A stretch of 64,000 nucleotides of DNA from Clostridia bacterium (GCA_045631485.1 JAZQUU010000028.1:241-64240), one strand, 5' to 3'. Counted from the stretch's first letter, positions 1,593-50,178 are shown. Numbers and translations are program-made. Notes: a model not told the origin generated them from the letters alone.

Positions 1593-4337
1593 ATGAGGAA
1601 AATTTTTATTTCTATGGCTGTTATCATTTTGGCAATAATTTCACTTTTTGCAGTCAGCGTAAATGCGGCAGTTACGGAAGTGAAAAATATAGAAAATGTG
1701 GGAATATATACAGCAACTGAAAATGTAGGCTTCGAAGTTACGAGAGATAATGCAGGTGAAGAATATATTGCTTTTAAGGTATATGATATTGATGGGAACC
1801 TGATAAAAGAAAGTAGATTCACTGCGAAGCAACAAAAACAAAAATTTTCCCTCGGATATTTTAAAAATGGTTGGTATCGTGTGAAAATATTCGTAAATGA
1901 TCAGGAAGAGAATATTTTTGCATCTTTTTCAGTTGTTGATGAAAGAGATGGATTTTACTATGATTCACCCTTTGCGATTATGCACCTTGGACGATTGGTA
2001 GGTAGCAGCAAGGATACAGCTTATGCTGAGGCTTTGGCAAAATTGTCGGTAGGGACTGTTCGTACCGATGAGATTGCAGATATTCATATGAGTGCTCGTC
2101 CTTACGAAAAATACAATACCAATCTCACTAATGTTGGAATCAGACCCATGGCAACGGTATCCACGAACTATACTTATCCCAACTCAACAACCACAGGAAA
2201 CGTGGGTGGATTTACCGAGCTTTTTGATGTTTATGATGTGCATAAAACCATGGTGAAAGCATATAACGGGAAAGTTCCATATTGGGAACTGATCAATGAG
2301 CCGGATATCAATAAATCTGTAAGTGCAGATGCTTTTGCATCTTGGTATAAAGCAGCCGCAATTGGTATCAGTGATGCTCAGCCGAGTGCGATGAAATCAT
2401 TTGGTGGTTTATGCGTCACAAATTCTCAGTATTTCGATATTATTATGCAAAATGGTATTATGGATTATTCCGATACCATCAATGTTCATAGTCATGCAAC
2501 AGACAGTGCTGACGGAATCAATTACAACGGAACCTTAGCAGAGATGGGCAAGGTGTATTCTGCATTGTACGCTGATAATGCTCCGTTGTGGAGTACTGAG
2601 TCAGGTGTTAGAATGACTGTTGTTGATGGAACGAACGAGCTTCCTTCAGAGGAATCATTAAGAAGACAGGCAAGATATATGATCACTTCATTTATGGAGA
2701 CTGTCGGTGAATATGGTATTAACAAGAATTTTTGGTTTTTAACCTCTCATTATGTATCTGAAGGCCCTGAGTACGGAACATTCAGTAAAAATGATATGCC
2801 GTATCCTGCAATCAACAGTTTGAATGTTTTGACTGATAACTTAAAAGATGGAAAATTATTAGGTCGTTTGAATGGCGTTGAAGATACCAAAGGATACTTT
2901 TTTGATTGTGGAGATTATGATGCAGCAGTTATCTGGAGAACCAAAGAAGGTAGAAAGAATATCCAGTTACATGCAAATGATAATGTTACAATCGTGGGAC
3001 TTGTAGGAAATGCGAATACCAAGGTGTATTCTCCTTCCACAGGCAGAGTAAGTTTTTATGTAACCGAAGATCCGATTCTGGTAAGATTTTCTCAAAAAGC
3101 AGATTGTGAAGATTATGTTAAAACTGCATTCGAGACCAGATTACCGGTTGCACACCCGTATACCGATACTGCAGAACGTGTAGTATTGCAACAGATATGG
3201 GATCCGAAACCGGATATTTACAATGGAGTGTATTCCTTAAAAAATAATACTGTGTATACAGTAAGATGCAGAATATATAACTTTAATGATAATACAGTAG
3301 ATGGAACTTTTGGATTCCGTAACAGTGATGGAATCATTGTTTCAGGGGAAACAACAGGTGCTTTTAGTGTAGCAGGTAATTCTTATGTTGAAGAAGAAAT
3401 TACAGTGGAAGTATCAAATAACGGAACCAATTTTTCCTTTGAAAACCTAGAATTTTACGCAGAGACTAGGGCAGGATGTGAAATTGCACCAAGTATAAGC
3501 CAAGTGCGTATACAAAATGAGCAAAATACCAGCGGAGCAGATATTACCGTTATTGAAGATGCGAACTATTATTCCAGTTCCAGACAAGGAGATTACTATA
3601 GTTCACAGGTTTCTCCCAGCACAAGCAACAGTTGGATAGGTAATAGCGTGAAATATTCGGTAAGAAATTTGAAAAATTCTGATGTTCCTGCGCAATTATA
3701 TATTTATCAGTCGAACTTGACTGTTAATTCTGATAGTGAAGGTATGTATTTCAAATTTAATTGTGATACGTTCCCTTCTTCTTTCGAAAAAGCATATTTC
3801 GATGTTATGGTTTTTGGTGATGAAGGTTCGTTCTATGCAAATAACCTGTTCGAATTTAATTCTTCTACCAAAAATAAAAATGTTTTTATCCCTTGGAGTG
3901 CATTTGTTCATTCCGGTGGAAATGTGGGTATTACAGATCCGTCTAAAATCAATAGGTTTGGTTTCGGCTTTGATTTAAGCAGCTCCACAGGATATAGTTT
4001 GGCTTTTACCATCAGCGATATGGGCACCTATAAGTCTCAGGTTGCAACAAACACCACAACACTTATTAATGTTTCGGGAATTGCAGATGGTGAGGAATAC
4101 AGATTAAAGGATGCAAAAGTAGAAATCGAATCTTATGATCCCGAGAATACTGAAATCTATGTGAATTATGAGAAAATAGAGTGTGATGCCGATGAAAGCG
4201 GCGTATACAAGTTGGATTTTTCAGAATACGAACCTGGAGATTACAGTTTGATTGTGGCTGTATCCGATGAATTTAACAAAAAGAATTATAAGAAGATAGA
4301 TTTTAGTCTTATGCAGGATCTGATATATTTCAGATAG
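1593..4337 (+). CDS. Secreted clan GH-A (GH39/GH5-like) glycoside hydrolase with accessory beta-sandwich and Ig-like domains
   Basis: Signal peptide; putative acid/base motif WELINEPD and nucleophile motif LWSTESG; RBS GGGAGG. Paralog of 6444..9677. Confidence 0.7.
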   Translation: MRKIFISMAVIILAIISLFAVSVNAAVTEVKNIENVGIYTATENVGFEVTRDNAGEEYIAFKVYDIDGNLIKESRFTAKQQKQKFSLGYFKNGWYRVKIFVNDQEENIFASFSVVDERDGFYYDSPFAIMHLGRLVGSSKDTAYAEALAKLSVGTVRTDEIADIHMSARPYEKYNTNLTNVGIRPMATVSTNYTYPNSTTTGNVGGFTELFDVYDVHKTMVKAYNGKVPYWELINEPDINKSVSADAFASWYKAAAIGISDAQPSAMKSFGGLCVTNSQYFDIIMQNGIMDYSDTINVHSHATDSADGINYNGTLAEMGKVYSALYADNAPLWSTESGVRMTVVDGTNELPSEESLRRQARYMITSFMETVGEYGINKNFWFLTSHYVSEGPEYGTFSKNDMPYPAINSLNVLTDNLKDGKLLGRLNGVEDTKGYFFDCGDYDAAVIWRTKEGRKNIQLHANDNVTIVGLVGNANTKVYSPSTGRVSFYVTEDPILVRFSQKADCEDYVKTAFETRLPVAHPYTDTAERVVLQQIWDPKPDIYNGVYSLKNNTVYTVRCRIYNFNDNTVDGTFGFRNSDGIIVSGETTGAFSVAGNSYVEEEITVEVSNNGTNFSFENLEFYAETRAGCEIAPSISQVRIQNEQNTSGADITVIEDANYYSSSRQGDYYSSQVSPSTSNSWIGNSVKYSVRNLKNSDVPAQLYIYQSNLTVNSDSEGMYFKFNCDTFPSSFEKAYFDVMVFGDEGSFYANNLFEFNSSTKNKNVFIPWSAFVHSGGNVGITDPSKINRFGFGFDLSSSTGYSLAFTISDMGTYKSQVATNTTTLINVSGIADGEEYRLKDAKVEIESYDPENTEIYVNYEKIECDADESGVYKLDFSEYEPGDYSLIVAVSDEFNKKNYKKIDFSLMQDLIYFR

Positions 4338-4353
4338 AATGTGAGAGGATTTT

Positions 4354-6447
4354 ATGATGAACATAGCCAAAAAACTGTTAAGTATTTTGATGGCGTTGAC
4401 GATGATGTCATCAATGCTTGTTGTTTCAATCTATGCTGATGATACTTATGATACTGTAAGTGGTAGTGCTACTACAGTTTTCGGCAATTTATCGTTCGTA
4501 AGAAGTGCGGGAAACGATAAAAAAGATGATGCAAACGCATATGATGGTACCTATTCCAGCTGTAACTGGGGTGGTTCCATCCGAACATTGAGCAAGACCT
4601 TCTATGTGGAAAGAGAAGGAACATATGCACTGTCCTTCAATGCAGTTACAGATTTGACGTTGGATGGTGCATCACCAATGAAATTCAGCATTGATGGTGA
4701 AGAATATGTTACAATGGACAGATCAAATTCAAACGTAACAGCGTTGAAAAATCCGTGGACATCAGTAGATGGATGGACTGTGAAGAATGTTGCATACAAT
4801 GGTGAGTTTGTATTTGAAGAAGGACTTCATACATTAGAAATTGAAATTCCGAAACGAAGCAGTGGCGACGTTGTAATCTATGTATTTGATTGTGCAACGA
4901 TTACGCCGACAAATAATATTCTGACAATTGCAGGCGATAGCCCTACAACAATTGGTAATTCAGCTTTTCAATGGAATGAAACGAACGATAAGAAGAACAA
5001 CGCAAGTGCATACGATGGAACTTATTCCAGCAGTAACTGGGGTAGTGCGGTAAGAACAGCAACAGTTTCTTTTTATGTTGAAACAGAGCAAAGATATTCA
5101 TTTGATATCAATGGGGTTTTTGATTTAACCCTTAGTGGTGCATCACCTGTGAAGTTCAGTATTGACGAAGGTCAAATGATTACTCTGACGAGCTCAAATG
5201 CTACCGTGTCGAACTTAACTACTCCGTGGCAGACAAACGTTGATGGTTGGACTGTAAAAAATATTGCTTATCACGGTGATTTTATGTTGGAGGAAGGTCT
5301 TCATACTCTAACATTTGAAATTCCGAAACGAAGCAGTAACGACGTTGTAATCTATGTATTTGATTGCGTAACGATTACGCCTCCTGCGCCCAATCAGATT
5401 ATTACAGACGAGAATAATGTGCTTGAATTCGAAAGATATTATCCGTCAAAAGCTGTTGTGAGTGATGGTGCAAGTGGTGGAGAAGTTGTAGATTTTCTGC
5501 AATACAGTGCAACAGAACGTTGTATTGAAATGATTTTTGATGTGGAAACAGCAGGCGAATATCTACTTGTAATGGATGCATCTTTAGAGCAGGGGGTTTC
5601 CAGTTTCCAGGATAATCTTAGTCCTGCATTTATTTCGGTAAATGGTGGCGAAGAAATCGAAATCAGCCATAATCAGCAGGGTAATTTTACCATTACTGCA
5701 GACGCTACCTATGAAAGTCCCAACGGCTGGAGTCCATCCAGAATTACTTTGGCAAGAAAGTTTGATTTGGTAGAGGGCGAAAATTCCATAACTGTTCGAG
5801 TTGCAGCAAGAAGAGGCGGAGATATGGTCGTTGGAACATTCGACTGTATCAAACTGGTAAGAAATAAAGTAATCGAAAGTATCACACAGGATATGGGAAA
5901 TGGGCTCATCACAAGAGGAGAAACTATCCCTGTCAGAATGAAAAATCAGAACAACGAGACAGTGAATCCCGAAGATTTTTCGCAAATCACATATACCTTT
6001 ACAGATGATAATATCGCTGAGGTTCAAAACGGGGTATTATTGGCTAAGAACTACGGAAAAACAACCCTGACCATCACTGCGGTATCCAACGGTATCGCTT
6101 TGGAAGCGGAGTATGATATTTGTGTTGTTTCTGAAAAAGGAATTTGGATTGATTCTGTAGAAAAGACGGAATCCGGCGTAAAAATCAATGTTTCTGCTAT
6201 GCAAAGTTATAGTGGTGGAGATCAGTTACTGGTTGGAGTTTATGGACAAAGAGAAGGTAGAGTTACGTCTTTGAAGACAATTGCTACCGCCGCAACGTTG
6301 GCGATGGAAGCTATGGACGATAGGGAAGTGGAAATTTCTGTATCCGATGTTGAAGAGAATGACGTAATCAGAGTATTTCTCATAGATGCCGACAATTCCA
6401 TGCGTGCTATTTATACAAAGTATACTTTAGGAGGTGTTGATGAATGA
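4354..6447 (+). CDS. Secreted non-catalytic repeat protein: two ~158-aa modules, a third beta-sandwich, an Ig-like domain and a C-terminal domain
   Basis: Signal peptide; internal repeat with 474-nt period; strong similarity to 3..1490. Confidence 0.8.
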   Translation: MMNIAKKLLSILMALTMMSSMLVVSIYADDTYDTVSGSATTVFGNLSFVRSAGNDKKDDANAYDGTYSSCNWGGSIRTLSKTFYVEREGTYALSFNAVTDLTLDGASPMKFSIDGEEYVTMDRSNSNVTALKNPWTSVDGWTVKNVAYNGEFVFEEGLHTLEIEIPKRSSGDVVIYVFDCATITPTNNILTIAGDSPTTIGNSAFQWNETNDKKNNASAYDGTYSSSNWGSAVRTATVSFYVETEQRYSFDINGVFDLTLSGASPVKFSIDEGQMITLTSSNATVSNLTTPWQTNVDGWTVKNIAYHGDFMLEEGLHTLTFEIPKRSSNDVVIYVFDCVTITPPAPNQIITDENNVLEFERYYPSKAVVSDGASGGEVVDFLQYSATERCIEMIFDVETAGEYLLVMDASLEQGVSSFQDNLSPAFISVNGGEEIEISHNQQGNFTITADATYESPNGWSPSRITLARKFDLVEGENSITVRVAARRGGDMVVGTFDCIKLVRNKVIESITQDMGNGLITRGETIPVRMKNQNNETVNPEDFSQITYTFTDDNIAEVQNGVLLAKNYGKTTLTITAVSNGIALEAEYDICVVSEKGIWIDSVEKTESGVKINVSAMQSYSGGDQLLVGVYGQREGRVTSLKTIATAATLAMEAMDDREVEISVSDVEENDVIRVFLIDADNSMRAIYTKYTLGGVDE

Positions 6448-9400
6448 AGAGAATAATCTGTTTGATTCTTGTGTTTTGCATGATGCTCGCAATGTGTATA
6501 ACATCACACGCAGAAGATGAGATTGTGATTAGAGTAGAAGCAGAGAAATATTCATCAGCAACCGTTAAGGGTGGTATCTACGAGGATTCCGGGCTCAGTG
6601 AAGGAAAAACAGTTGGTTTTAACTGGGCTGCTCCCAAGGACGAAGATTACGTGTATGAATATCTGATTGATGTTCCGAAAACAGGAGTGTATGCAATTAC
6701 TGCAGGTGGTACAGAGAGAGGCTTGTCTAACACAACAGACTGGTCTGTATATGTGAATACACCGGATAACGCTCCCAGCTCTTATGTGAAAGATGGAAAC
6801 ATCAGTACAGCAAAATTGCTTCCGAGCGTATTTAAAACTTATTCTCTTGGAGAAATGAAATTAAAAAAGGGAATCAATAAACTGTACATTTCAATCAATA
6901 AAAATGACGTACAGCAAGACGGCGTGCTCATTAGTATGGTTGACTATGTGCAGTTGAAAATGAACCCCAATGCTTCATTTAAAGTCCAAACAGTTCGGTT
7001 TAAGGATAATTTTTTGGGCGTTTATGAAAATGGAACTAATGTTGAACTCAAGTTTGAATTTAACACCATAGCAGACAAAGAGAAAAAATTTAGTTTCGAA
7101 ATTGTTGACTTATGGGGCAGAAATGTAGTAGATGGTGTGTTCAGCGTAAGAAAAGGTGTTGATGAAGCAGTTCTGAATCTGGGTAAATTTCAAAATGGAT
7201 GGTACAGAATATACTTGAAAGATGAAAATAACACCGAAGTAACAAAATACCTTGCGTTTTCTGTGGTGCATCCGTTAAGCGACAGAACAGTTTTTGAAGA
7301 TACCTCTTGGGCAAGTGATATTGCGATTGAATATTCAGGACAGGCTTCTGCTCATGTGGATGATTATGCAAGAGCATTAAAACTTGCAGGATTAAATTAT
7401 GCCAGAACCAGAGGTTCTGCAGACCTTTCAGACAGTTATCCTGTGAAGGAAGCTTTGCACCAGCACGGAATCAACGAAACAGTTATGCACGATGTATCTG
7501 CTTCTATGCATGGGGTGTCAGCAAATGTGCCTCAAAGCTATATGATGATAGATGACCTGAGTAAGATTGCATACACCAGATGGAAAAATATCGCTAATGT
7601 AACAGCAGATTATGTTGAGGCGATAGAAGTGCTTAACGAAGGTGATATCGGTTTTGACGGAATTGCCGGAACAGGAGATTTACAAGCGTCCTATTTCAAA
7701 GCGGCAATGATTGGTATTTCGGATGCGAAGGTGAATCCCATTAAATCATATGCCGGATTTGCTTCTTGGACAAACTTTACGTTGACAAACACCCTTGAGA
7801 ATGACATTTTAAGCTATTCTGATATCTATAACTATCATCAGCATGGTGAAGTTGAACAGCGTACAGCTTTTGCGAAACAGTATTCCATTGCATATCAGAA
7901 GCCGGGCGAAAAACTGCTTCCTTTATGGGCAACTGAAAATGGTTTTTCACAAAATGTAGATGATAAGTCCGTGGTAAAAGACTTAAAAGGCGGAGTTCGT
8001 CATTCTATCATTTCGGCTGTAACTGCAATGAAAACCGGCACAACCAAAAACTTTTATTTCCTCACAAGGCCATATATCGAAAACAACAATAATTTTAGTT
8101 GTTGGCATGTAGATCATCTTCCTTTCCCGATGTATTCTGCTATTTCCACTTATACTTATGAGTTAGGGCAGGGTACCTATAAAGGGATTTTAGACAATAT
8201 CCCAGAGGGCGTAGAAGCATACTTGTTTGATAACGGTGAAGGTGATGATGTAATCTGTGTTTGGTCAGACCATCAGAATTACATCACCATTGATGTAACG
8301 GAACTGAAGTATGTAGATATGGTAGGTTACGAGCAAGTGATGAAGGATACTGATGGAGACGGCAAAATCAAAGTTTCCGTGTCAGAGGATCCGATTATCT
8401 TACATCTTAACGGAAGATATAGCGAAGATAAGTATTATAAACAAGAGTATGGAATCGAAAAAATCGAACAAAAGGTTTACCAGCCATACGAACGAATTGT
8501 TCTTCAGCAGTTATGGGATGAAGAACGATACAAAAATCCTACAGAGCTGAAATTTGCAAGAGAAGAAGGCTATTTGATGGAAAAAGGTGAAAGCGAAACA
8601 GTTCGTCTGAACATTTATAATTTTAACGATCAGCGAATGAGCGGAACCATAAAAACTGTAACCAATGGGCCTATTGTGCTCGATAAAGATTCATCGGAAT
8701 TTAGCATTGAACCCTGGGGACACTCACAGATAGCTTTTACATTTACAGTTCCCGAGGATGCTACTGAAGGCGCTCTGTATAACTTGAAATTCTTCGGTGT
8801 TACATCGGAAGGAAACGACATTTCTCACACATCAGCCAGATATAAAATCAAAGTGCAAGACAGAGTGATTGATGAGAAAGATATGATTTTTATGACTGAT
8901 GCAGTGAGAGCAGAGAAGTGGGATCCGGCAAACAGAGCAGCGGGATCCACAGTGAAAATCGTTAACAATCAAGAAGATAAGGTAACTTTTTGGGTTCAGT
9001 ATAATGGTGACAACTGGGCATTCCCGTTCTATTATCTGAGCGAAGAAGATAAAAAAGTTATGATCACAAGTTCAGGGATTGTTTTCGATAGAGAGTGTAC
9101 AGAGGATGTAGGTTATAAAACTTCTGTGTTCTTGTATACAGCAGATGGTAGAAATTATTATAGCGGTACAGACTCGGCAGTTTCGTACACGATTGACAAA
9201 AAACAGTTGATCTTCCCGTGGTCTGATTTCGACTTGTATCATTCACCGCTTGGCGCCTTTGAAAACAGACCTTTCAGACTGGAAGACATTACCCATATTT
9301 CTATTGGGAATAGTGGTGGTCGATTAAGCGGGCCTATGCCGGAAGTTACACTTTCAAAAGTTGCATTCTTCAATTCAGACAATCCATCTGATAAAATTCA

Positions 9401-29968: not shown

Positions 29969-31186
29969 ATGGAAAATATCAGTGGGATGTACAGTATTAG
30001 GGAAATATATCGGATGGGTAGAGGCCCGTCAAGTTCTCACACCATGGGACCAAGCGCCGCTTGTGAACTGATGCTTTCGGATTATCCCCAGGCAGATACC
30101 TTTCGTATAGTGTTATACGGTTCCCTGGCAAAAACAGGTATCGGACACAGAACGGATTATGCCATTAGAGAAACCTTGAAAAATAAGATATGTGAGATTG
30201 TGTTTGATGAAGAAACAACTGATCTTCTGCATCCGAACACCATGGATATTACGGCATTAAAAGATGGAAAAGTGCTTTACAAAAAAACGGCGTTGAGTGT
30301 GGGTGGCGGTGCGATTTTGTTTGTGGGCGAACCCATCAAGGAGTCGGAGCTTGTTTATGAACATACAGAGTTTTCAGAAATTGAGAACTATTGTATGAAG
30401 CACGGCATATCTCTTGCGGACTATGTTTTTTCCTTTGAAGATGAAACTATCAAAGAATATTTATCAAACGTCTGGGAACAGATGAAAGCAACAGTTAGGT
30501 CGGGACTTTCCAAAGAAGAAATTCTCCCCGGCGGACTTAATATCAAAAGAAAAGCAAAAATGCTGATTCAAAAAGGAAATTCCAAGCCATTCGGACACGA
30601 AAAAGAAATCTATTTACTATCTGCTTATGCCTACGCAGCCAGCGAGGAAAACGCATCCGGAGAAAAGATGGTAACAGCCCCAACTTGCGGAGCATCGGGA
30701 GTGCTTCCCGCAGTTTTAATCTGCAAACAACGGGAATTAGGTTTTTCCGATGATAAAATTATAGAAGCATTAGCTGTGGCAGGCTTGATTGGCAATCTTG
30801 TGAAGAAAAACGCATCCATCAGCGGTGCAGAGTGCGGTTGTCAGGCAGAGGTTGGTACCGCTTGTATGATGGCAGCGGCGGCATTGGCATACTTAAAAGG
30901 ATGCGGTATCAAACAAATCGAATGTGCAGCAGAAATTGCATTAGAACATCATTTGGGACTCACTTGTGACCCGATCAAAGGATTGGTGCAGATTCCCTGT
31001 ATTGAACGAAATGCCGTAGCGGCAATGCGGGCAGTGGATGCAGTATCTTTAGCACAGATGCTTTATGAAAACAGAAAAATATCCCTGGATATGGTAATCA
31101 AAACAATGTATGAAACCGGAAGAGATTTGTCTTGCCGTTATCGGGAAACCTCGGAAGGTGGACTTGCAAGAATATATCAACCCTGA
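29969..31186 (+). CDS. sdaA: L-serine ammonia-lyase, Fe-S dependent, single-chain
   Basis: GPSSSHTMGP, VTAPTCGASG, SGAECGCQAEVG, LGLTCDP and QIPCIERNA motifs. Confidence 0.93.
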   Translation: MENISGMYSIREIYRMGRGPSSSHTMGPSAACELMLSDYPQADTFRIVLYGSLAKTGIGHRTDYAIRETLKNKICEIVFDEETTDLLHPNTMDITALKDGKVLYKKTALSVGGGAILFVGEPIKESELVYEHTEFSEIENYCMKHGISLADYVFSFEDETIKEYLSNVWEQMKATVRSGLSKEEILPGGLNIKRKAKMLIQKGNSKPFGHEKEIYLLSAYAYAASEENASGEKMVTAPTCGASGVLPAVLICKQRELGFSDDKIIEALAVAGLIGNLVKKNASISGAECGCQAEVGTACMMAAAALAYLKGCGIKQIECAAEIALEHHLGLTCDPIKGLVQIPCIERNAVAAMRAVDAVSLAQMLYENRKISLDMVIKTMYETGRDLSCRYRETSEGGLARIYQP

Positions 31187-31229
31187 CACATATTGAGAAA
31201 TATGATACAATGCCATCGAGGTGATTAAG

Positions 31230-31493
31230 ATGCCAAGACATGCACGGCGAAAAAGCACAACAGGTTTTTATCATATTTTATTAAGAGGTGTTGGACGTCA
31301 GAATATTTTTGTGGACGAAGAGGATAAGCAAAGATTTTTTGAAACAATAGCAAGATATAAGCAGGAGATTCATTTTGAATTACATGCATATTGTTTTATG
31401 TGAAATCATGTTCATCTCTTAATGAAAGACACAACAGACCATCTTGATCAAATAATGAAGAAAATTGCCGGTAGTTATGCATATTATTTCAAT
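31230..31493 (+). pseudogene. HUH (Y1) transposase of RAYT/IS200-like type, with nonsense codon and 3' truncation
   Basis: MPRHARRKSTTGFYHILLRG...YCFM*NHVHLL...SYAYYFN. In-frame TGA at 31401-31403 lies just before the HUH motif; homology appears to end at ~31493. Confidence 0.85.
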
Positions 31494-31517
31494 ACATGGT
31501 CGAACACAAGGGGAACT

Positions 31518-31566
31518 TTGACTTTTAATCAAGTTGTTCGGCGTTCGAATCGCCGATGGCTCACCA
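31518..31566 (+). mobile_element. 3' half of tRNA-Lys(UUU): putative att site (right end) of an integrated element
   Basis: TTGACTTTTAATCAAG anticodon arm, CGGCG-TTCGAAT-CGCCG T arm and ATGGCTC-A-CCA end; no D arm or 5' acceptor strand upstream. Confidence 0.8.
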
Positions 31567-31597
31567 AAAATCCTCATTCGTAAGAATGGGGATTTTT
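31566..31597 (+). terminator. Intrinsic terminator directly after the tRNA-Lys fragment
   Basis: AAAAATCCTCATT-CGTAAG-AATGGGGATTTTT. Confidence 0.8.
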
Positions 31598-31763
31598 ACT
31601 TTTTCCCGAAATTCTTGACAAGTTTCAGTATGTTTGCTTTGCCTTTGGCAAAGCTTTTTTATTTTGGGAACCAAATATCAACCAAGTAAGATTTACTTTC
31701 CCTCTTGCCAAATTCGGCGAAATATGATATAGTATACTATGATTTTATTTTTACAGAAAAGAG

Positions 31764-32481
31764 ATGTATCAATTGGCTCAATCAAAAGGGTTATCCCAAT
31801 ATGAAAAAATGACCACCTGGCCGATTCCGAAATTAGTTATTTCCTTAGGGATTCCCCAGCTTTTGCAGACAGGGGTTAACCAGTATTGCCACTATGACCT
31901 TAAATAACCTTGCCGGAGAGGTGGGAGGAGACGCTGCTGTGGCGGCGATGTCTATCGTCAATAAAATCACCTTCTTTATCTTTGCAGTAGGGCTCGGCAT
32001 CGGTCAGGGGTTTCAACCGGTGGCATCCTTTAACTATGGTGCCAAAATCTATTCCCGTGTGAAAAAAGCCTTCTATTTTACCTTGTGGGCAGGGGAGATT
32101 TTCCTCGGCGTATGTGTGGTAATCGGCCTGATTTTTTCCAACAATCTGGTGGGAATGTTCCGTAATGACCCAACGGTAATTGCAATCGGCACTCTGAGCC
32201 TCAAAATGCAGCTTCTGGCGTTGTTTTTCCATCCTATGACCATCTGTGCCAATATGATGTTTCAAAGCATTGGAGAGAATAAAAAAGCCACATTCTTATC
32301 CATGCTTCGAAGCGGGATTTTGTTTATTCCCACCTTGGTGATTCTGACTCACTTTTTCGGACTGTTCGGCGTGCAGTCTTCTCAGGCGATTGCGGATGTG
32401 ATCACATTTTTTATCTGCACACCTGTTGCGCTCCGCTTTTTAAAACGACTTCCAAAGGACCAACCGGAGCAGCATGTATAA
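31764..32481 (+). pseudogene. MATE efflux transporter with a large internal deletion and +1 frameshift
   Basis: The N-terminus (QYEKMTTWPIPKLVISLGIP) joins at ATTCCCC (31851-31857) to the second-half sequence PSFCRQGLTSIATMTLNN in the +1 frame. The C-terminal half 31855..32481 is open. Promoter TTGCCA-17-TATAGT at 31705-31733. Confidence 0.8.
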
Positions 32482-32486
32482 ACGAT

Positions 32487-32527
32487 AAAATGGCGACATT
32501 CAAAAAATGAATGTCGCCATTTTTTTG
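32487..32527. terminator. Bidirectional intrinsic terminator
   Basis: AAAATGGCGACATTCA...TGAATGTCGCCATTTTTTT. Confidence 0.85.
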
Positions 32528-32631
32528 ATGTGATTAATGACTGAAAATGTAAAAATCATAAAGACTTCTCCTCAAGGAGAAGCCTTGCATAGAAGGAATC
32601 TTTCATGGTTGATAGAGATGTTCTGGCAAGG

Positions 32632-32838
32632 TTACTGATTCATTTTTGGGTTGTTGGTTCTGCCAAGTAAATAATCCACGGAGATATTAAAGTAATCTGC
32701 GATTTTGATGAGCTCATTGATGCCGGGTTCTCTTTCACCTGTTTCGTATCTGCTGATGGTGTTTTGGTTCATATTTAAATCCATGGCTAATTTGAGCTGT
32801 GAAATTTTTTTCGCTTTTCTGATTTCTTTTAATTTCAT
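32632..32838 (-). CDS. XRE-family HTH regulator
   Basis: LKEIRKAKKISQLKLAMDLNMNQNTISRYETGEREP; ATG 32838 after GAGGTG. Confidence 0.9.
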   Translation of the reverse strand: MKLKEIRKAKKISQLKLAMDLNMNQNTISRYETGEREPGINELIKIADYFNISVDYLLGRTNNPKMNQ

Positions 32839-32849
32839 AAAAACACCTC

Positions 32850-32900
32850 TTGACAATATTATCCCACAATGGTATAATAAAAATATCCCAATATGGTATA
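32850..32900 (+). promoter_or_regulatory. Sigma-A promoter overlapped by two near-palindromic operators
   Basis: TTGACA (32850-55)-17-TATAAT (32873-78) with TG extension; TATCCCA-N3-TGGTATA at 32860-32876 and 32884-32900. Confidence 0.75.
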
Positions 32901-32917
32901 TTTAAGGAGGAAAGATT

Positions 32918-33457
32918 ATGAATTGTAAAAAATGCGGAAACGAAGTTGACAAAAAGGCAGTTGTTTGCCCCGGGTGCGGATGTAAGATTAAGAAACCGTT
33001 TTATAAAAAATGGTGGTTTTTCGGAATCCTGATTATTTTTGTGATTGCAGTAGCAGGTAACGGAAATGAAGGAAATACCGATACAAGTTCGCCCAAAGAA
33101 GCAGAAAAAAGCGTTGAAGCCACTGCGGAACCCATTACTTACGAAACTGTTGATTTAGCAGTCATGTTTGAAGAGTTAAAAACCAATGCGATGAAAGCAG
33201 AAAATAACTATCAGAAAAAGAATATCGAATTTACAGCAAAAATTAAAAATTTTGACAGTGATGGAAAATATGTTGGTGTTGAACCGACCACGGCGAACGA
33301 ATGGAACTTTGAAACGGCTCTGTGCTATATAAAAAATGACGAGCAGAAGAACTTTTTAATTGAGAAAAATGTGGGTGATATCATCACGATCAAAGGAAAA
33401 GTGAAATCCATCGGAGAAGTGTTGGGATATACCATTGATATTGCAGAAGTTCAATAA
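32918..33457 (+). CDS. Zinc-ribbon membrane-anchored protein with an extracellular OB-fold-like domain
   Basis: N-terminal CxxC...CxxC, a KKWW + TM helix and a polar C-terminal domain. Confidence 0.7.
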   Translation: MNCKKCGNEVDKKAVVCPGCGCKIKKPFYKKWWFFGILIIFVIAVAGNGNEGNTDTSSPKEAEKSVEATAEPITYETVDLAVMFEELKTNAMKAENNYQKKNIEFTAKIKNFDSDGKYVGVEPTTANEWNFETALCYIKNDEQKNFLIEKNVGDIITIKGKVKSIGEVLGYTIDIAEVQ

Positions 33458-33470
33458 TTTTATAAACATA

Positions 33471-33505
33471 AAAAAATCCGGAAACATTTTGTTTCCGGAT
33501 TTTTT
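33471..33505. terminator. Bidirectional intrinsic terminator
   Basis: AAAAAATCCGGAAAC-ATTTT-GTTTCCGGATTTTTT between convergent genes. Confidence 0.88.
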
Positions 33506-33532
33506 GTTTTTTTAATTGTTTTATGAATAAAA

Positions 33533-47064: not shown

Positions 47065-50000
47065 ATGTACGAAAAAGTGTCTGCAAATTTAAACTTTGTG
47101 GAAAGAGAAAAGAAGACAGAAGCTTTTTGGAAAGAGAATAAAATCTTTGAAAAAAGTATCGACACCCGTAAAGAAGGGGAAACCTTCACTTTTTATGACG
47201 GTCCCCCCACAGCAAACGGCAAACCTCATATCGGGCACGTGTTAACCCGTGTTATCAAAGATATGATTCCCCGTTATAAAACCATGAAAGGTTACCACGT
47301 GCTTCGTAAAGCAGGTTGGGATACCCATGGGTTACCCGTTGAGCTGGAAGTGGAAAAGAAACTGGGCTTAGACGGCAAAGAACAGATTGAAGAATATGGC
47401 TTGGAACCCTTTATTAAAGAATGTAAAGAAAGCGTTTGGAAATATAAAGGAATGTGGGAAGACTTTTCCGGAACCGTTGGTTTCTGGGCAGATATGGACG
47501 ACCCCTACGTTACCTACACCAACGTTTTTATTGAATCCGAATGGTGGGCATTAAAACAAATCTGGGACAAAGGCTTGTTATACAAAGGCTTTAAAATTGT
47601 ACCCTATTGCCCCCGTTGCGGAACTCCTTTATCCAGCCACGAAGTTGCTCAGGGCTATAAAGATGTAAAAGAAAAATCTGCGATCGCAAAATTCAGGGTA
47701 AAAGGTGCAGATGATGAATAAATTTTAGCTTGGACCACCACCCCCTGGACTTTACCCTCCAACGTGGCACTTTGCGTAAACCCCGATGAAACTTATGTGA
47801 AAATTGAAACCGAAGGTGTGAAATACATCTTAGCGGAAGCTTTGGTTGCAAGCGTGATTGAAACCGAATACACCGTGCTGGAATCCTATATCGGGAAAGA
47901 TTTGGAATACAAAGAATACGAACCCCTCTTTGATTTTGCAAAACCCGACAAAAAAGCATACTATGTGGTTTGTGATCACTATGTTACCTTAACCGACGGT
48001 ACCGGTATCGTTCATATTGCACCTGCATTCGGGGAAGACGATGCTCAGGTGGGCAGAAAATATGACCTGCCTTTCGTTCAGTTGGTAAACTCCCGTGGGG
48101 AAATGACCGAAGAAACTCCCTGGGCAGGTATGTTCTGTAAAGATGCAGACAAAGAAGTGTTTATTGACTTAGATAAAAGAGGTCTGCTCTTTAAGGCTCT
48201 GCCTTTTGAACATTCCTATCCCTTCTGTTGGAGATGTGATACTCCCTTAATCTACTATGCAAGAGACTCCTGGTTCATCAAAATGACCGCGGTGAAAGAT
48301 AATCTCATTAAAAACAACAACACCGTAAACTGGATTCCCGAATCCATCGGGAAAGGTCGTTTTGGCGACTGGCTCAACAACGTGCAGGATTGGGGCGTAA
48401 GCCGTGACCGTTACTGGGGTACTCCCCTAAATATCTGGCAGTGTGAGTGCGGACACCGTCACGCAATCGGAAGCATCGAAGAATTAAAGAGCATGTCTGA
48501 TAACTGTCCCGACGAAATTGAATTGCATCGTCCCTTCATTGATGCGGTAACCATCAAATGTCCCGAATGTGGAAAACAGATGACCCGTGTGAAAGAAGTT
48601 ATCGACTGTTGGTTTGACTCCGGTGCAATGCCTTTCGCACAGTGGCACTATCCCTTTGAAAACAAAGAAATTTTCGAAGAAAACTTCCCTGCAGACTTTA
48701 TCAGTGAAGCGGTGGACCAGACCCGTGGTTGGTTCTATTCTCTGCTTGCGATTTCTACCTTGATTTTTGATAAAGCACCTTATAAAAATGTTATCGTGTT
48801 AGGTCACGTGCAGGATGAAAACGGTCAGAAAATGTCTAAATCCAAAGGCAATGCCGTTGACCCCTTTGATGCATTGGCAGAACACGGTGCGGATGCAATC
48901 CGTTGGTATTTCTATTCCAACTCTGCTCCCTGGTTACCTAACAAATTCCATAAAGGTGCGGTAACCGAAGGTCAGAGAAAGTTTATGGGTACTCTCTGGA
49001 ATACCTATGCATTCTTTGTGCTCTATGCAAACATTGATGGCTTTGATGCCACCAAATACAGTCTGGAATATGACAAACTGCCCGTGATGGACAAGTGGTT
49101 ATTATCCAAATTGAATTCCTTAACCGAAACTGTGGACACTTATTTAGGTGACTACAAAATCACCGAAACCTCCCGTGTGCTGGACGATTTTGTGGATGAA
49201 CTGAGTAACTGGTATGTTCGCCGTAGCAGAGAGCGTTTCTGGGGCAAAGATATGACTCAGGATAAAATCAATGCCTATATGACTTTATACACCGCATTGG
49301 TAACCTTATCCAAATTATCTGCTCCCATGATTCCCTTTATGGCAGAAGATATTTACAGAAACTTAGTTTGCTCCATTGATAAAACTGCTCCCGAAAGCGT
49401 GCATCTTTGTGATTTCCCCGTGGCAAACACCGCTTGGATTGATAAAGATTTAGAAGAAAAAATGGAGCAGGTGGTTGACATTGTTGTGTTGGGCCGTGCT
49501 GCAAGAAACTCTGCCAACATCAAAAACCGTCAGCCTATCGGAAAAATGTTTGTGAAAGCAGAAAATGCTCTGCCCGAATACTTCCGTGATATTATTGCAG
49601 AAGAATTGAATGTAAAAGAAGTGGTATTTACCGACAGCGTAAAAGATTTCACTTCTTATTCCTTCAAGCCGCAACTTAAAACTTTAGGTCCCCGTTTTGG
49701 TAAACAGCTTGGCGAATTGCGCACCATTTTATCCGGGTTAGACGGCATTGCCGCTATGGACGAATTGGAAACCAAAGGTACTTTGACCATCACCTTAGGC
49801 GGTAACGAAGAAGCATTAACCAAAGAGGATTTACTCATTGAATCCGCTCAGGTTCCCGGTTACGAATCCAACTCCGATTACGGCATCACCGTGGTGTTGG
49901 ATACCAACTTAACCGAAGAGCTTTTGGAAGAAGGCTTTGTAAGAGAAGTGGTTTCCAAAATTCAGACTATGAGAAAAGATTCCGGCTTCGAAGTGACTGA

Positions 50001-50178
50001 CCATATTATCGTTAGCGTTTCGGGTAACGACAAAGTGGCAGACATTATGAAGAGAAACGAAGCAACCATCAAAGAAGATGTGTTGGCGGAAGAAATCACC
50101 TACGGAACTTTGGTGGGTGAAGGCAAGCATTGGAGCGTAAACGGCGAAGAAGTTGATTTTGCCGTGAAACAGTGCTAG
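47065..50178 (+). CDS. ileS: Isoleucyl-tRNA synthetase (long, type 2-like), interrupted by one in-frame TAA at 47719-47721
   Basis: PHIGH and GWDTHGLP upstream of the stop; [16 protein letters not shown] across it; DCWFDSG and KMSKS downstream; both listed ORFs share one frame. Confidence 0.9.

Follow-up and report, generated by a model that had tools for sequence, protein, structure and literature searches.

A displaced tRNA-Lys 3' end as the probable right boundary of acquired DNA beside a glycan locus in an uncultured gut Clostridium

The anticodon stem-loop of tRNA genes is the classical crossover site of integrases, and in gut Bacteroides mobile polysaccharide utilisation loci (PULs) travel on ICEs. 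Of the 3919 islands in the Islander collection, 3760 carry 3' fragments and 2083 use anticodon-centred sites (PMC4383910). An island brings in a tDNA fragment that makes the gene whole again, and the fragment it displaces comes to lie at the far end; the Islander filters ask for a full-length cognate tRNA upstream, in the same orientation and on the same replicon, at 2-200 kb, with an integrase inside the interval (PMC4383910). The locus described here lies in the middle of a stretch of 64,000 nucleotides from a Clostridia bacterium, hereafter the window, and is best compared with the anticodon-centred ('A') class of Islander (Hudson, Lau & Williams 2015, PMC4383910). As in that class, a 3' end-fragment of a tRNA gene, running from the anticodon stem-loop to CCA, lies downstream of apparently foreign DNA in the orientation of the gene, with an empty site in relatives and a step in composition. 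It differs from that class in two respects: the full-length tRNA partner and the integrase would lie outside the visible interval, where the contig ends, and the visible end of the insert is a degraded RAYT gene instead of phage or ICE genes. We consider it likely that the fragment is the chromosomal 3' half of tRNA-Lys, displaced to the right (attR-type) junction when DNA integrated at this tRNA gene. As such, it is a textbook genomic-island scar and no new kind of element.

The fragment of tRNA-Lys(UUU) occupies positions 31518-31566 on the plus strand and corresponds to tRNA positions 28-76, an end fragment with CCA and not an internal piece. It was recognised by reading the sequence and by its match to the intact genes of two related genomes, L002 and L003, with whose 3' part 48 of its 49 positions agree; the lone difference from all relatives is C48 to T, at 31538. 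The fragment comprises the anticodon stem 5' strand tTTGA (31517-31521, first pair U.G), the anticodon loop CTTTTAA with anticodon TTT (31522-31528), the stem 3' strand TCAAG (31529-31533), the variable loop TTGTT (31534-31538), the T arm CGGCG-TTCGAAT-CGCCG (31539-31555), the acceptor 3' strand ATGGCTC (31556-31562), the discriminator A31563 and CCA (31564-31566). Neither a D arm nor an acceptor 5' strand can be read in it. Its left boundary, at 31518 or 31522, falls within the anticodon stem-loop; the crossover sublocations known for such islands are the anticodon loop, the T loop and the T/acceptor junction. With up to three mismatches allowed, the 45-nt core is present as a single copy in the window (0 in 100 shuffles), and the 16-nt anticodon arm also occurs once.

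At the fragment, ARAGORN reports no tRNA and Rfam none at the gathering threshold, the tRNA model reaching 15.4 bits at relaxed thresholds against a cut-off of 29. The only tRNAs that the two programs retrieve in the window form a Cys-Gly-Phe-Asp cluster at 40.6-41.1 kb, and ARAGORN finds no full-length tRNA-Lys gene in the window, which stops before the left junction; the source contig, of 64,349 bp, extends past the window by 349 bp at most. A functional half-tRNA RNA was considered and rejected, as it has no Rfam support and the acceptor and D arms cannot form. Immediately 3' lies the native intrinsic terminator of the tRNA array (31566-31606, plus strand), for which the terminator scan gives a 14-pair hairpin and T run at 31566-31597. 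The same hairpin stands 3' of the intact tRNA-Lys in L002 and 3' of fragments in two further relatives, L001 and L005, and comparison of the four sequences reveals a compensatory A-T to G-C change in its stem. The earlier note on this DNA had described an anticodon arm (UUU), T arm, acceptor 3' strand and CCA lacking a 5' half and followed at once by a terminator, a description with which the sequence agrees throughout.

The first gene of the conserved chromosomal right flank is a MATE efflux pseudogene (31767-32481, plus strand), identified from three-frame translations and a Pfam MatE match on its C-terminal half. Alignment to L002, L003 and L005 revealed in it a 655-bp frameshifting deletion between two GG(G/A)ATTCCC repeats, with its junction at about 31849-31856. 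Approximately 218 codons were thereby lost, the relatives being intact at 454-463 aa. The repeats correspond to the 'GIP' and 'GFP' motifs, which are homologous between the two MATE lobes. Beyond this pseudogene the order is a small zinc-ribbon/OB-fold membrane protein gene, upp, uracil permease and housekeeping genes, including nagA, nagB, ileS, uppP and polA.

Relatives were retrieved by scanning the C-terminal half of MATE against species-representative genomes, which gave 72 loci; the closest are uncultured Clostridia MAGs from the guts of ruminants and other animals, with 80-91% amino acid identity. In L003, the tRNA array Gly(UCC)-Arg(UCU)-His-Gln-Lys(UUU) lies directly upstream of MATE, with hisF and a NUDIX gene before the array and, further right, the same Cys-Gly-Phe-Asp tRNA cluster as in the window. 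In L002, His-Gln-Lys is followed by the terminator of the window and then by MATE. Fragment and terminator together (31518-31607) are 98.9% identical to L002, and homology to both genomes begins at 31518, inside the tRNA, with nothing leftward matching at the DNA or protein level. The intact array beside MATE in these relatives indicates the ancestral state, so that L002, with the same terminator and MATE, and L003, with the intact array, represent empty sites. Such relatives, with an intact tRNA-Lys followed by MATE, were what the earlier note had suggested looking for, and together with the geometry of the fragment they agree with its reading of an integrase-type displaced 3' tRNA end at the right junction. 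The fragment differs from L002 by one change in 49 nt and the adjacent coding flank by about 17%; a fairly recent displacement would fit these sequences. In L003 (8844-9060), another terminator stands after the intact tRNA-Lys, and next to it are about 230 bp with many TCGATAT repeats. This stretch is missing from the other four genomes and may be a left-end remnant (arm-type sites?) of an element that has been mostly deleted.

It is hardly credible that the junction is a chimera produced when the contig was assembled from metagenomic reads. The relatives are all MAGs, and odd in-frame stops occur in the IleRS gene (47719-47721) and in the RAYT remnant (31401-31403). However, a join via the tRNA repeat would have retained a tRNA 5' half, and none is present; the common repeat is merely 45-49 nt long, and independent assemblies of two other species carry the same kind of fragment. 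The IleRS gene (47065-50178) is split by a TAA, and both this stop and that of RAYT could reflect an error in sequencing or in the consensus, real loss of a gene that has a second copy elsewhere, or another cause.

The two other species are L001 and L005. Neither has a tRNA at the site, and both keep positions 32-76 of tRNA-Lys with the terminator. They have the junction TAAAT|CTTTTAATC in common, whereas the junction of the window is TTGA|CTTTTAA. In a neighbour-joining tree of the 5 kb of right flank common to the window, L001, L002, L003 and L005, the window groups with L002 (299 of 300 replicates) and L001 with L003 (300 of 300), with L005 in between. Fragment and intact states therefore alternate on the tree, which calls either for precise reversions or for at least two independent events whose positions differ by 4 nt. 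Two or more such events point to site-specific recombination and are hard to reconcile with random deletion.

In the course of events that we propose, the ancestral order in the clade would have been the Gly-Arg-His-Gln-Lys tRNA array, the terminator and the MATE gene. Foreign DNA would have integrated site-specifically at the anticodon stem-loop of the last gene of the array, tRNA-Lys(UUU), through recombination, by a tyrosine integrase, between the chromosomal gene and an attP endowed with a copy of the 3' half of the tRNA. The tRNA gene would thereby be rebuilt at the left junction, beside the integrase, and the original chromosomal 3' half would be displaced with its native terminator to the right junction, where it now forms 31518-31566. 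The end of the insert beside the fragment would later have decayed, with a nonsense codon in RAYT and a deletion that left 21 nt to the tRNA core. For the window, we infer that an integrase made the junction and that the tRNA was restored at the left end, beyond the window. The fragment would then show, to the base, where horizontally acquired DNA ends on the right in this uncultured gut Clostridium.

Mobile elements that use this tRNA gene were sought in several collections. Metagenomes scanned with the 45-nt half yielded six contigs with an identical 76-nt tRNA-Lys gene, whole or cut at the contig end, and an exact search of metagenomes for fragment plus terminator gave no match. At three loci (L086, L087 and L088), a phage-type tyrosine integrase gene comes directly after the intact tRNA-Lys, in convergent orientation, and ends 38-99 nt from CCA; these integrases are only 23-27% identical in pairwise comparisons, and in L086 a Peptidase_S24 repressor-like gene stands beside the integrase. 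Clostridium phage phiCs5676-1 (OR574845.1) carries a tRNA-Lys 3' half from position 27, about 150 nt from its integrase. Dulem virus 51 (L100, PP511381.1; 2886-4312) contains tRNA-Lys positions 32-76 and a look-alike of the host terminator, with a 307-aa tyrosine recombinase adjoining. Its 8.1-kb circular genome is classified as that of an inovirus, and it probably represents a filamentous phage that integrates, or else a small integrative element, from this clade of bacteria. In viral contigs the 45-nt half of the window has no exact match; a search tolerating one T-stem pair retrieved four IMG/VR contigs (L101-L104) with the 3' half alone, starting at positions 27-32. In L101 the integrase is 84 nt from the half, and in L102 an endolysin lies on the other side. 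Wherever the neighbourhood of these phage and viral halves is visible, an integrase adjoins.

The phage attP sites thus involve the same tRNA-Lys, and their copy starts either at 27-29, as in the window, or at 32, as in L001 and L005; both chromosomal boundary types, at positions 28 and 32, have attP-like counterparts in mobile elements. L101-L104 and Dulem virus 51 also have the acceptor end of the clade of the window, ATGGCTCACCA, whereas that of phiCs5676-1, CACGCTCA, is that of its own host. The integrase of these sites is convergent and close to the tRNA half. The window differs in that it has no phage genes, its insert consisting of carbohydrate catabolism genes. In the attL and attP examples the integrase adjoins the restored tRNA or the tRNA half, and the equivalent place for the window would be the left end, beyond the contig. 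The last gene of the Gly-Arg-His-Gln-Lys array is an integration hot spot, used by at least three unrelated integrases and several phages.

These configurations also bear on the possibility that the insertion brought no replacement 3' half, in which case tRNA-Lys would be split, its 5' half would lie far to the left, and another tRNA-Lys gene would serve the cell. The left junction is outside the visible sequence in all three fragment-bearing genomes, and the certain tRNA sequence of the window starts at or next to TTGAC|TTTTAATC, a short defined motif; single-strand Y1 transposases (IS200/IS605) use defined short motifs as target. Nevertheless, we regard a split gene as very improbable. Every mobile DNA found with this half has a tyrosine integrase adjoining it, which is the restoring configuration, IS200/IS605-type elements measure 1-2 kb against more than 31 kb here, and a 3' fragment together with a restored gene is the rule (PMC4383910).

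To the left of the fragment, a RAYT/IS200-like Y1 transposase pseudogene (31230-31496, plus strand) was identified by translation and by Pfam (Y1_Tnp, 44.7 bits). It consists of codons 1-89 of a 246-aa family, the 3' two thirds being deleted, and has an in-frame TGA at 31401-31403 where L005 has GGA. The intact L005 relative is assigned by NCBIfam to the REP-associated tyrosine transposases, and the remnant is 94% identical to it in nucleotides, compared with about 83% for core genes. Beyond 31496 the sequence no longer matches RAYT of L005, leaving 21 nt of junction filler (31497-31517, plus strand) before the tRNA fragment; the truncated transposase remnant of the earlier note is thus confirmed as truncated, at a distance of 21 nt instead of about 25. 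A promoter scan and the comparison of eight RAYT upstream regions point to a promoter-like site, CTGACA-17-TACAAT, at 31183-31211 on the plus strand.

In this family, proteins encoded by intact genes measure 246 aa, and the genes have inverted REP hairpins, GTGTCAAGGGGACGGTTCTCTTGACAC, on both sides, as seen in a REP consensus derived from eight RAYT loci. At intact loci, the 3' arm of the upstream hairpin is the -35 hexamer of the RAYT promoter; in the window this hexamer is the last remnant (TGACAC) of that hairpin and shares bases with the serine dehydratase stop codon. The homology of the window to all RAYT loci begins at 31184-31198, and the module is truncated at both boundaries, 31184 and 31496. 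Thus, 31230-31496 belongs to the same family as RAYT/REP systems, but differs from them in that the gene is dead, with a stop and two thirds lost after codon 89, and in that both REPs are vestigial, a REP-like 10-mer being all that is left downstream. No signs were found that RAYT created the junction of the window. At the RAYT loci of L005 (700-1600) and L077-L083, the upstream REP hairpins are sometimes tandem, and identical RAYT proteins sit beside differing neighbour genes. RAYT was tried as a stable marker of the island and proved uninformative, as its neighbours vary (RHS toxins, GH95, GH78, aminotransferase).

The 21-nt filler holds CAAGGGGAAC (31507-31516), followed by TTTGAC, and resembles the REP hairpin core CAAGGGGAC beside intact RAYT genes; CAAGGGGA has only two occurrences in the window when both strands are searched. 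The motif looks like a REP vestige, so that TTGA at 31518-31521 could be part of this vestige and not tRNA-derived, and tRNA origin is certain only from 31522 on. If TTGA is a vestige, the true junction could equal that of L001 and L005. As the RAYT remnant lies 21 nt from the core, there is no room for a normal attP arm, and the reading of the fragment as an integration scar must assume a secondary deletion. The filler would then be the outermost surviving DNA of the inserted element, and we take the RAYT remnant for passenger DNA that has decayed at the right end of the island. Since this end is degraded, any island is probably no longer mobile, and the element is probably fixed in place.

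At the junction itself, two observations speak against integration, namely that the junction differs from that of L001 and L005 and that a REP-like motif lies exactly at it. The latter permits, as a minor rival, an origin through RAYT/REP activity or microhomology. No site-specific integration would then have taken place; an illegitimate deletion or rearrangement, perhaps by one of these two routes, would have removed the tRNA-Lys 5' half and the four upstream tRNA genes and joined RAYT and the glycan region to MATE. The REP 3' arm and the anticodon stem of the tRNA both contain CTTGAC, a truncated RAYT and the REP-like CAAGGGGAAC..TTTGAC stand at the junction, the visible 31.5 kb contain no integrase, and the nearby deletion in MATE via short repeats indicates that such events occur here. 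We hold this origin to be improbable, however, because the breakpoints of three genomes fall within 4 nt at the anticodon stem-loop and because deletions are irreversible, whereas the fragment and intact states alternate on the tree. Moreover, the composition step marks the DNA on the left as foreign instead of rearranged core, and the his-operon genes that flank the array in L003 are missing from the window.

The composition of the two sides is clearly different. Mean GC3 is 0.370 in the 18 genes on the left and 0.467 in the 23 on the right (Mann-Whitney p = 2e-6), with no significant difference in GC1 or GC2. The mean absolute RSCU difference is 0.366, compared with 0.121 +/- 0.031 in 2000 gene-label permutations (0 of 2000 as large; about 8 SD). 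A difference in codon style that had earlier been noticed only by eye is therefore strong by both measures. The step is located at the fragment, between serine dehydratase (GC3 0.39) and MATE (0.54). The same step stands at the fragment in L005 (0.24-0.33 on the left, 0.39-0.53 on the right) and in L001 (0.25 on the left). No GC3 step is present in L003, with its intact array, where the flanking his-operon genes have values of 0.39-0.49. On these figures, all three occupied genomes have foreign-looking DNA to the left of the fragment. Low GC3 could partly come from low expression of inducible catabolic genes and not from foreign origin.

The low-GC3 block, which is the putative cargo, extends from 72 to 31186 and was annotated from ORFs and Pfam as 18 genes, all on the plus strand except an AraC regulator on the minus strand. 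It encodes two SLH-domain surface proteins and several large proteins with no family assignment, an ABC sugar-binding protein and two permeases, the enzymes GH78, GH20, GH106-like, GH28 and an SGNH esterase, and a sugar-phosphate isomerase/epimerase-like TIM-barrel protein, L-rhamnose isomerase and L-serine dehydratase. All 18 genes are glycan-catabolic, transport-related, regulatory or of no known function. Across the visible 31.5 kb, Pfam detected no gene for an integrase or excisionase and none of phage or conjugation type, and tblastn with five recombinases likewise found no integrase. Neither at the DNA nor at the protein level does the block resemble what lies left of the array in the relatives that have it intact. 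The nearest homologue of its first protein in the protein collection is only 48% identical; no close relative of the glycan locus was found in that collection, nor any match among plasmids.

Horizontal acquisition is the best explanation for the DNA left of the fragment, RAYT remnant included, and the acquired DNA most probably includes the glycan and rhamnose locus in its entirety, as far as the end of the contig. Whether the entire 31.5 kb is cargo of one element is less certain. Composition, lost synteny and the lack of internal att copies would be consistent with it, and we give this reading at best an even chance. That this complete Gram-positive glycan/rhamnose locus of more than 31 kb is cargo of a single tRNA-Lys-targeting integrative element is a tentative proposal, which we hold to be somewhat more doubtful than its contrary. 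No second tRNA-Lys fragment or other att-like copy was found within 1-31.5 kb, and thus the block is not a tandem array of islands.

The scar might instead be the genuine trace of a different or older element, with the glycan locus placed by separate events such as cargo replacement, accretion or a fusing deletion, which we judge unlikely and yet worth serious weight. L005 has the same RAYT (94% nucleotide identity) 7.7 kb left of its tRNA-Lys fragment, with unrelated, defence-like cargo in between, namely HD-domain, AAA/deaminase and MBL-fold proteins, and the inserts of the two genomes have the RAYT module in common and nothing else. RAYT is also truncated on both sides in the window (31184 and 31496), its neighbours vary among genomes, glycoside hydrolases included, and GC3 is uneven inside the block, from 0.29 to 0.44 per gene. 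Against this, no internal tRNA-Lys fragment or att-like copy splits 1-31.5 kb, the low-GC3 style is found in 18 of the 18 genes on the left, and the step coincides with the fragment. Derivation of the junction of the window from an L005-like island by one deletion was rejected, as the sequences just left of the core differ. In more detail, the L005 insert (1597-8669) encodes HD/dGTPase-like, 813-aa AAA plus cytidine-deaminase-like and MBL-fold proteins and unknowns, with GC3 of 0.25-0.33, and its content looks like anti-phage defence.

By analogy, the locus resembles the mobile PULs of Bacteroides in being a large glycan-degradation set that is accessory, compositionally foreign and placed at an integration hot spot. 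It differs from them in being of Gram-positive type, with SLH-anchored proteins and an ABC transporter and no SusC/D, and in having no visible conjugation or integration genes, so that its mobility is putative. The cargo at the tRNA-Lys site differs across three sister species, with the glycan locus in the window and defence-like genes in L005. Should the whole glycan locus be cargo, dietary-glycan catabolism would be spreading as a mobile unit among Gram-positive gut bacteria; should the single-element reading hold, tRNA-targeted integration would spread whole polysaccharide-utilisation loci among uncultured gut Clostridia, in the manner of the mobile PULs of Bacteroides. The integration mechanism is the textbook one and leaves current understanding unchanged; the value of the locus lies mainly in annotation, of an island boundary and a hot spot, and in a possible mobile Gram-positive glycan locus.

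In L001, only a recombinase and a glycosyltransferase-like reading frame are visible at the site. The recombinase, which among the fragment-bearing genomes is the only one beside a fragment, lies 384 bp from it and is Xer-like, scoring 253 bits with the XerC model (cut-off 335) and also falling below the XerD cut-off. We did not accept it as the integrase of an island, as it belongs to a large conserved family found in unrelated contexts with no tRNA-Lys fragment elsewhere; in L090 and L093-L098, for instance, the gene stands beside pentapeptide and radical-SAM genes with no such fragment. No close relative of this recombinase was found in viral contigs.

Two further variable regions were observed. 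Between MATE and upp, positions 32482-33530 of the window hold the gene for the membrane protein with a zinc ribbon and a tRNA_anti-like OB-fold (GC3 0.36). This gap measures about 60 bp in L003 and L005 and contains other low-GC3 ORFs in L001 and L002, which makes it a second small variable spot. The Xer-like recombinase of these Clostridia is a conserved protein of 307 aa whose gene has a variable 5' side (L090 965-9852; L093-L098). Genes for a large serine recombinase and DUF6076 are found in this region, together with a MobL relaxase in the case of L090, and it is apparently another insertion hot spot.
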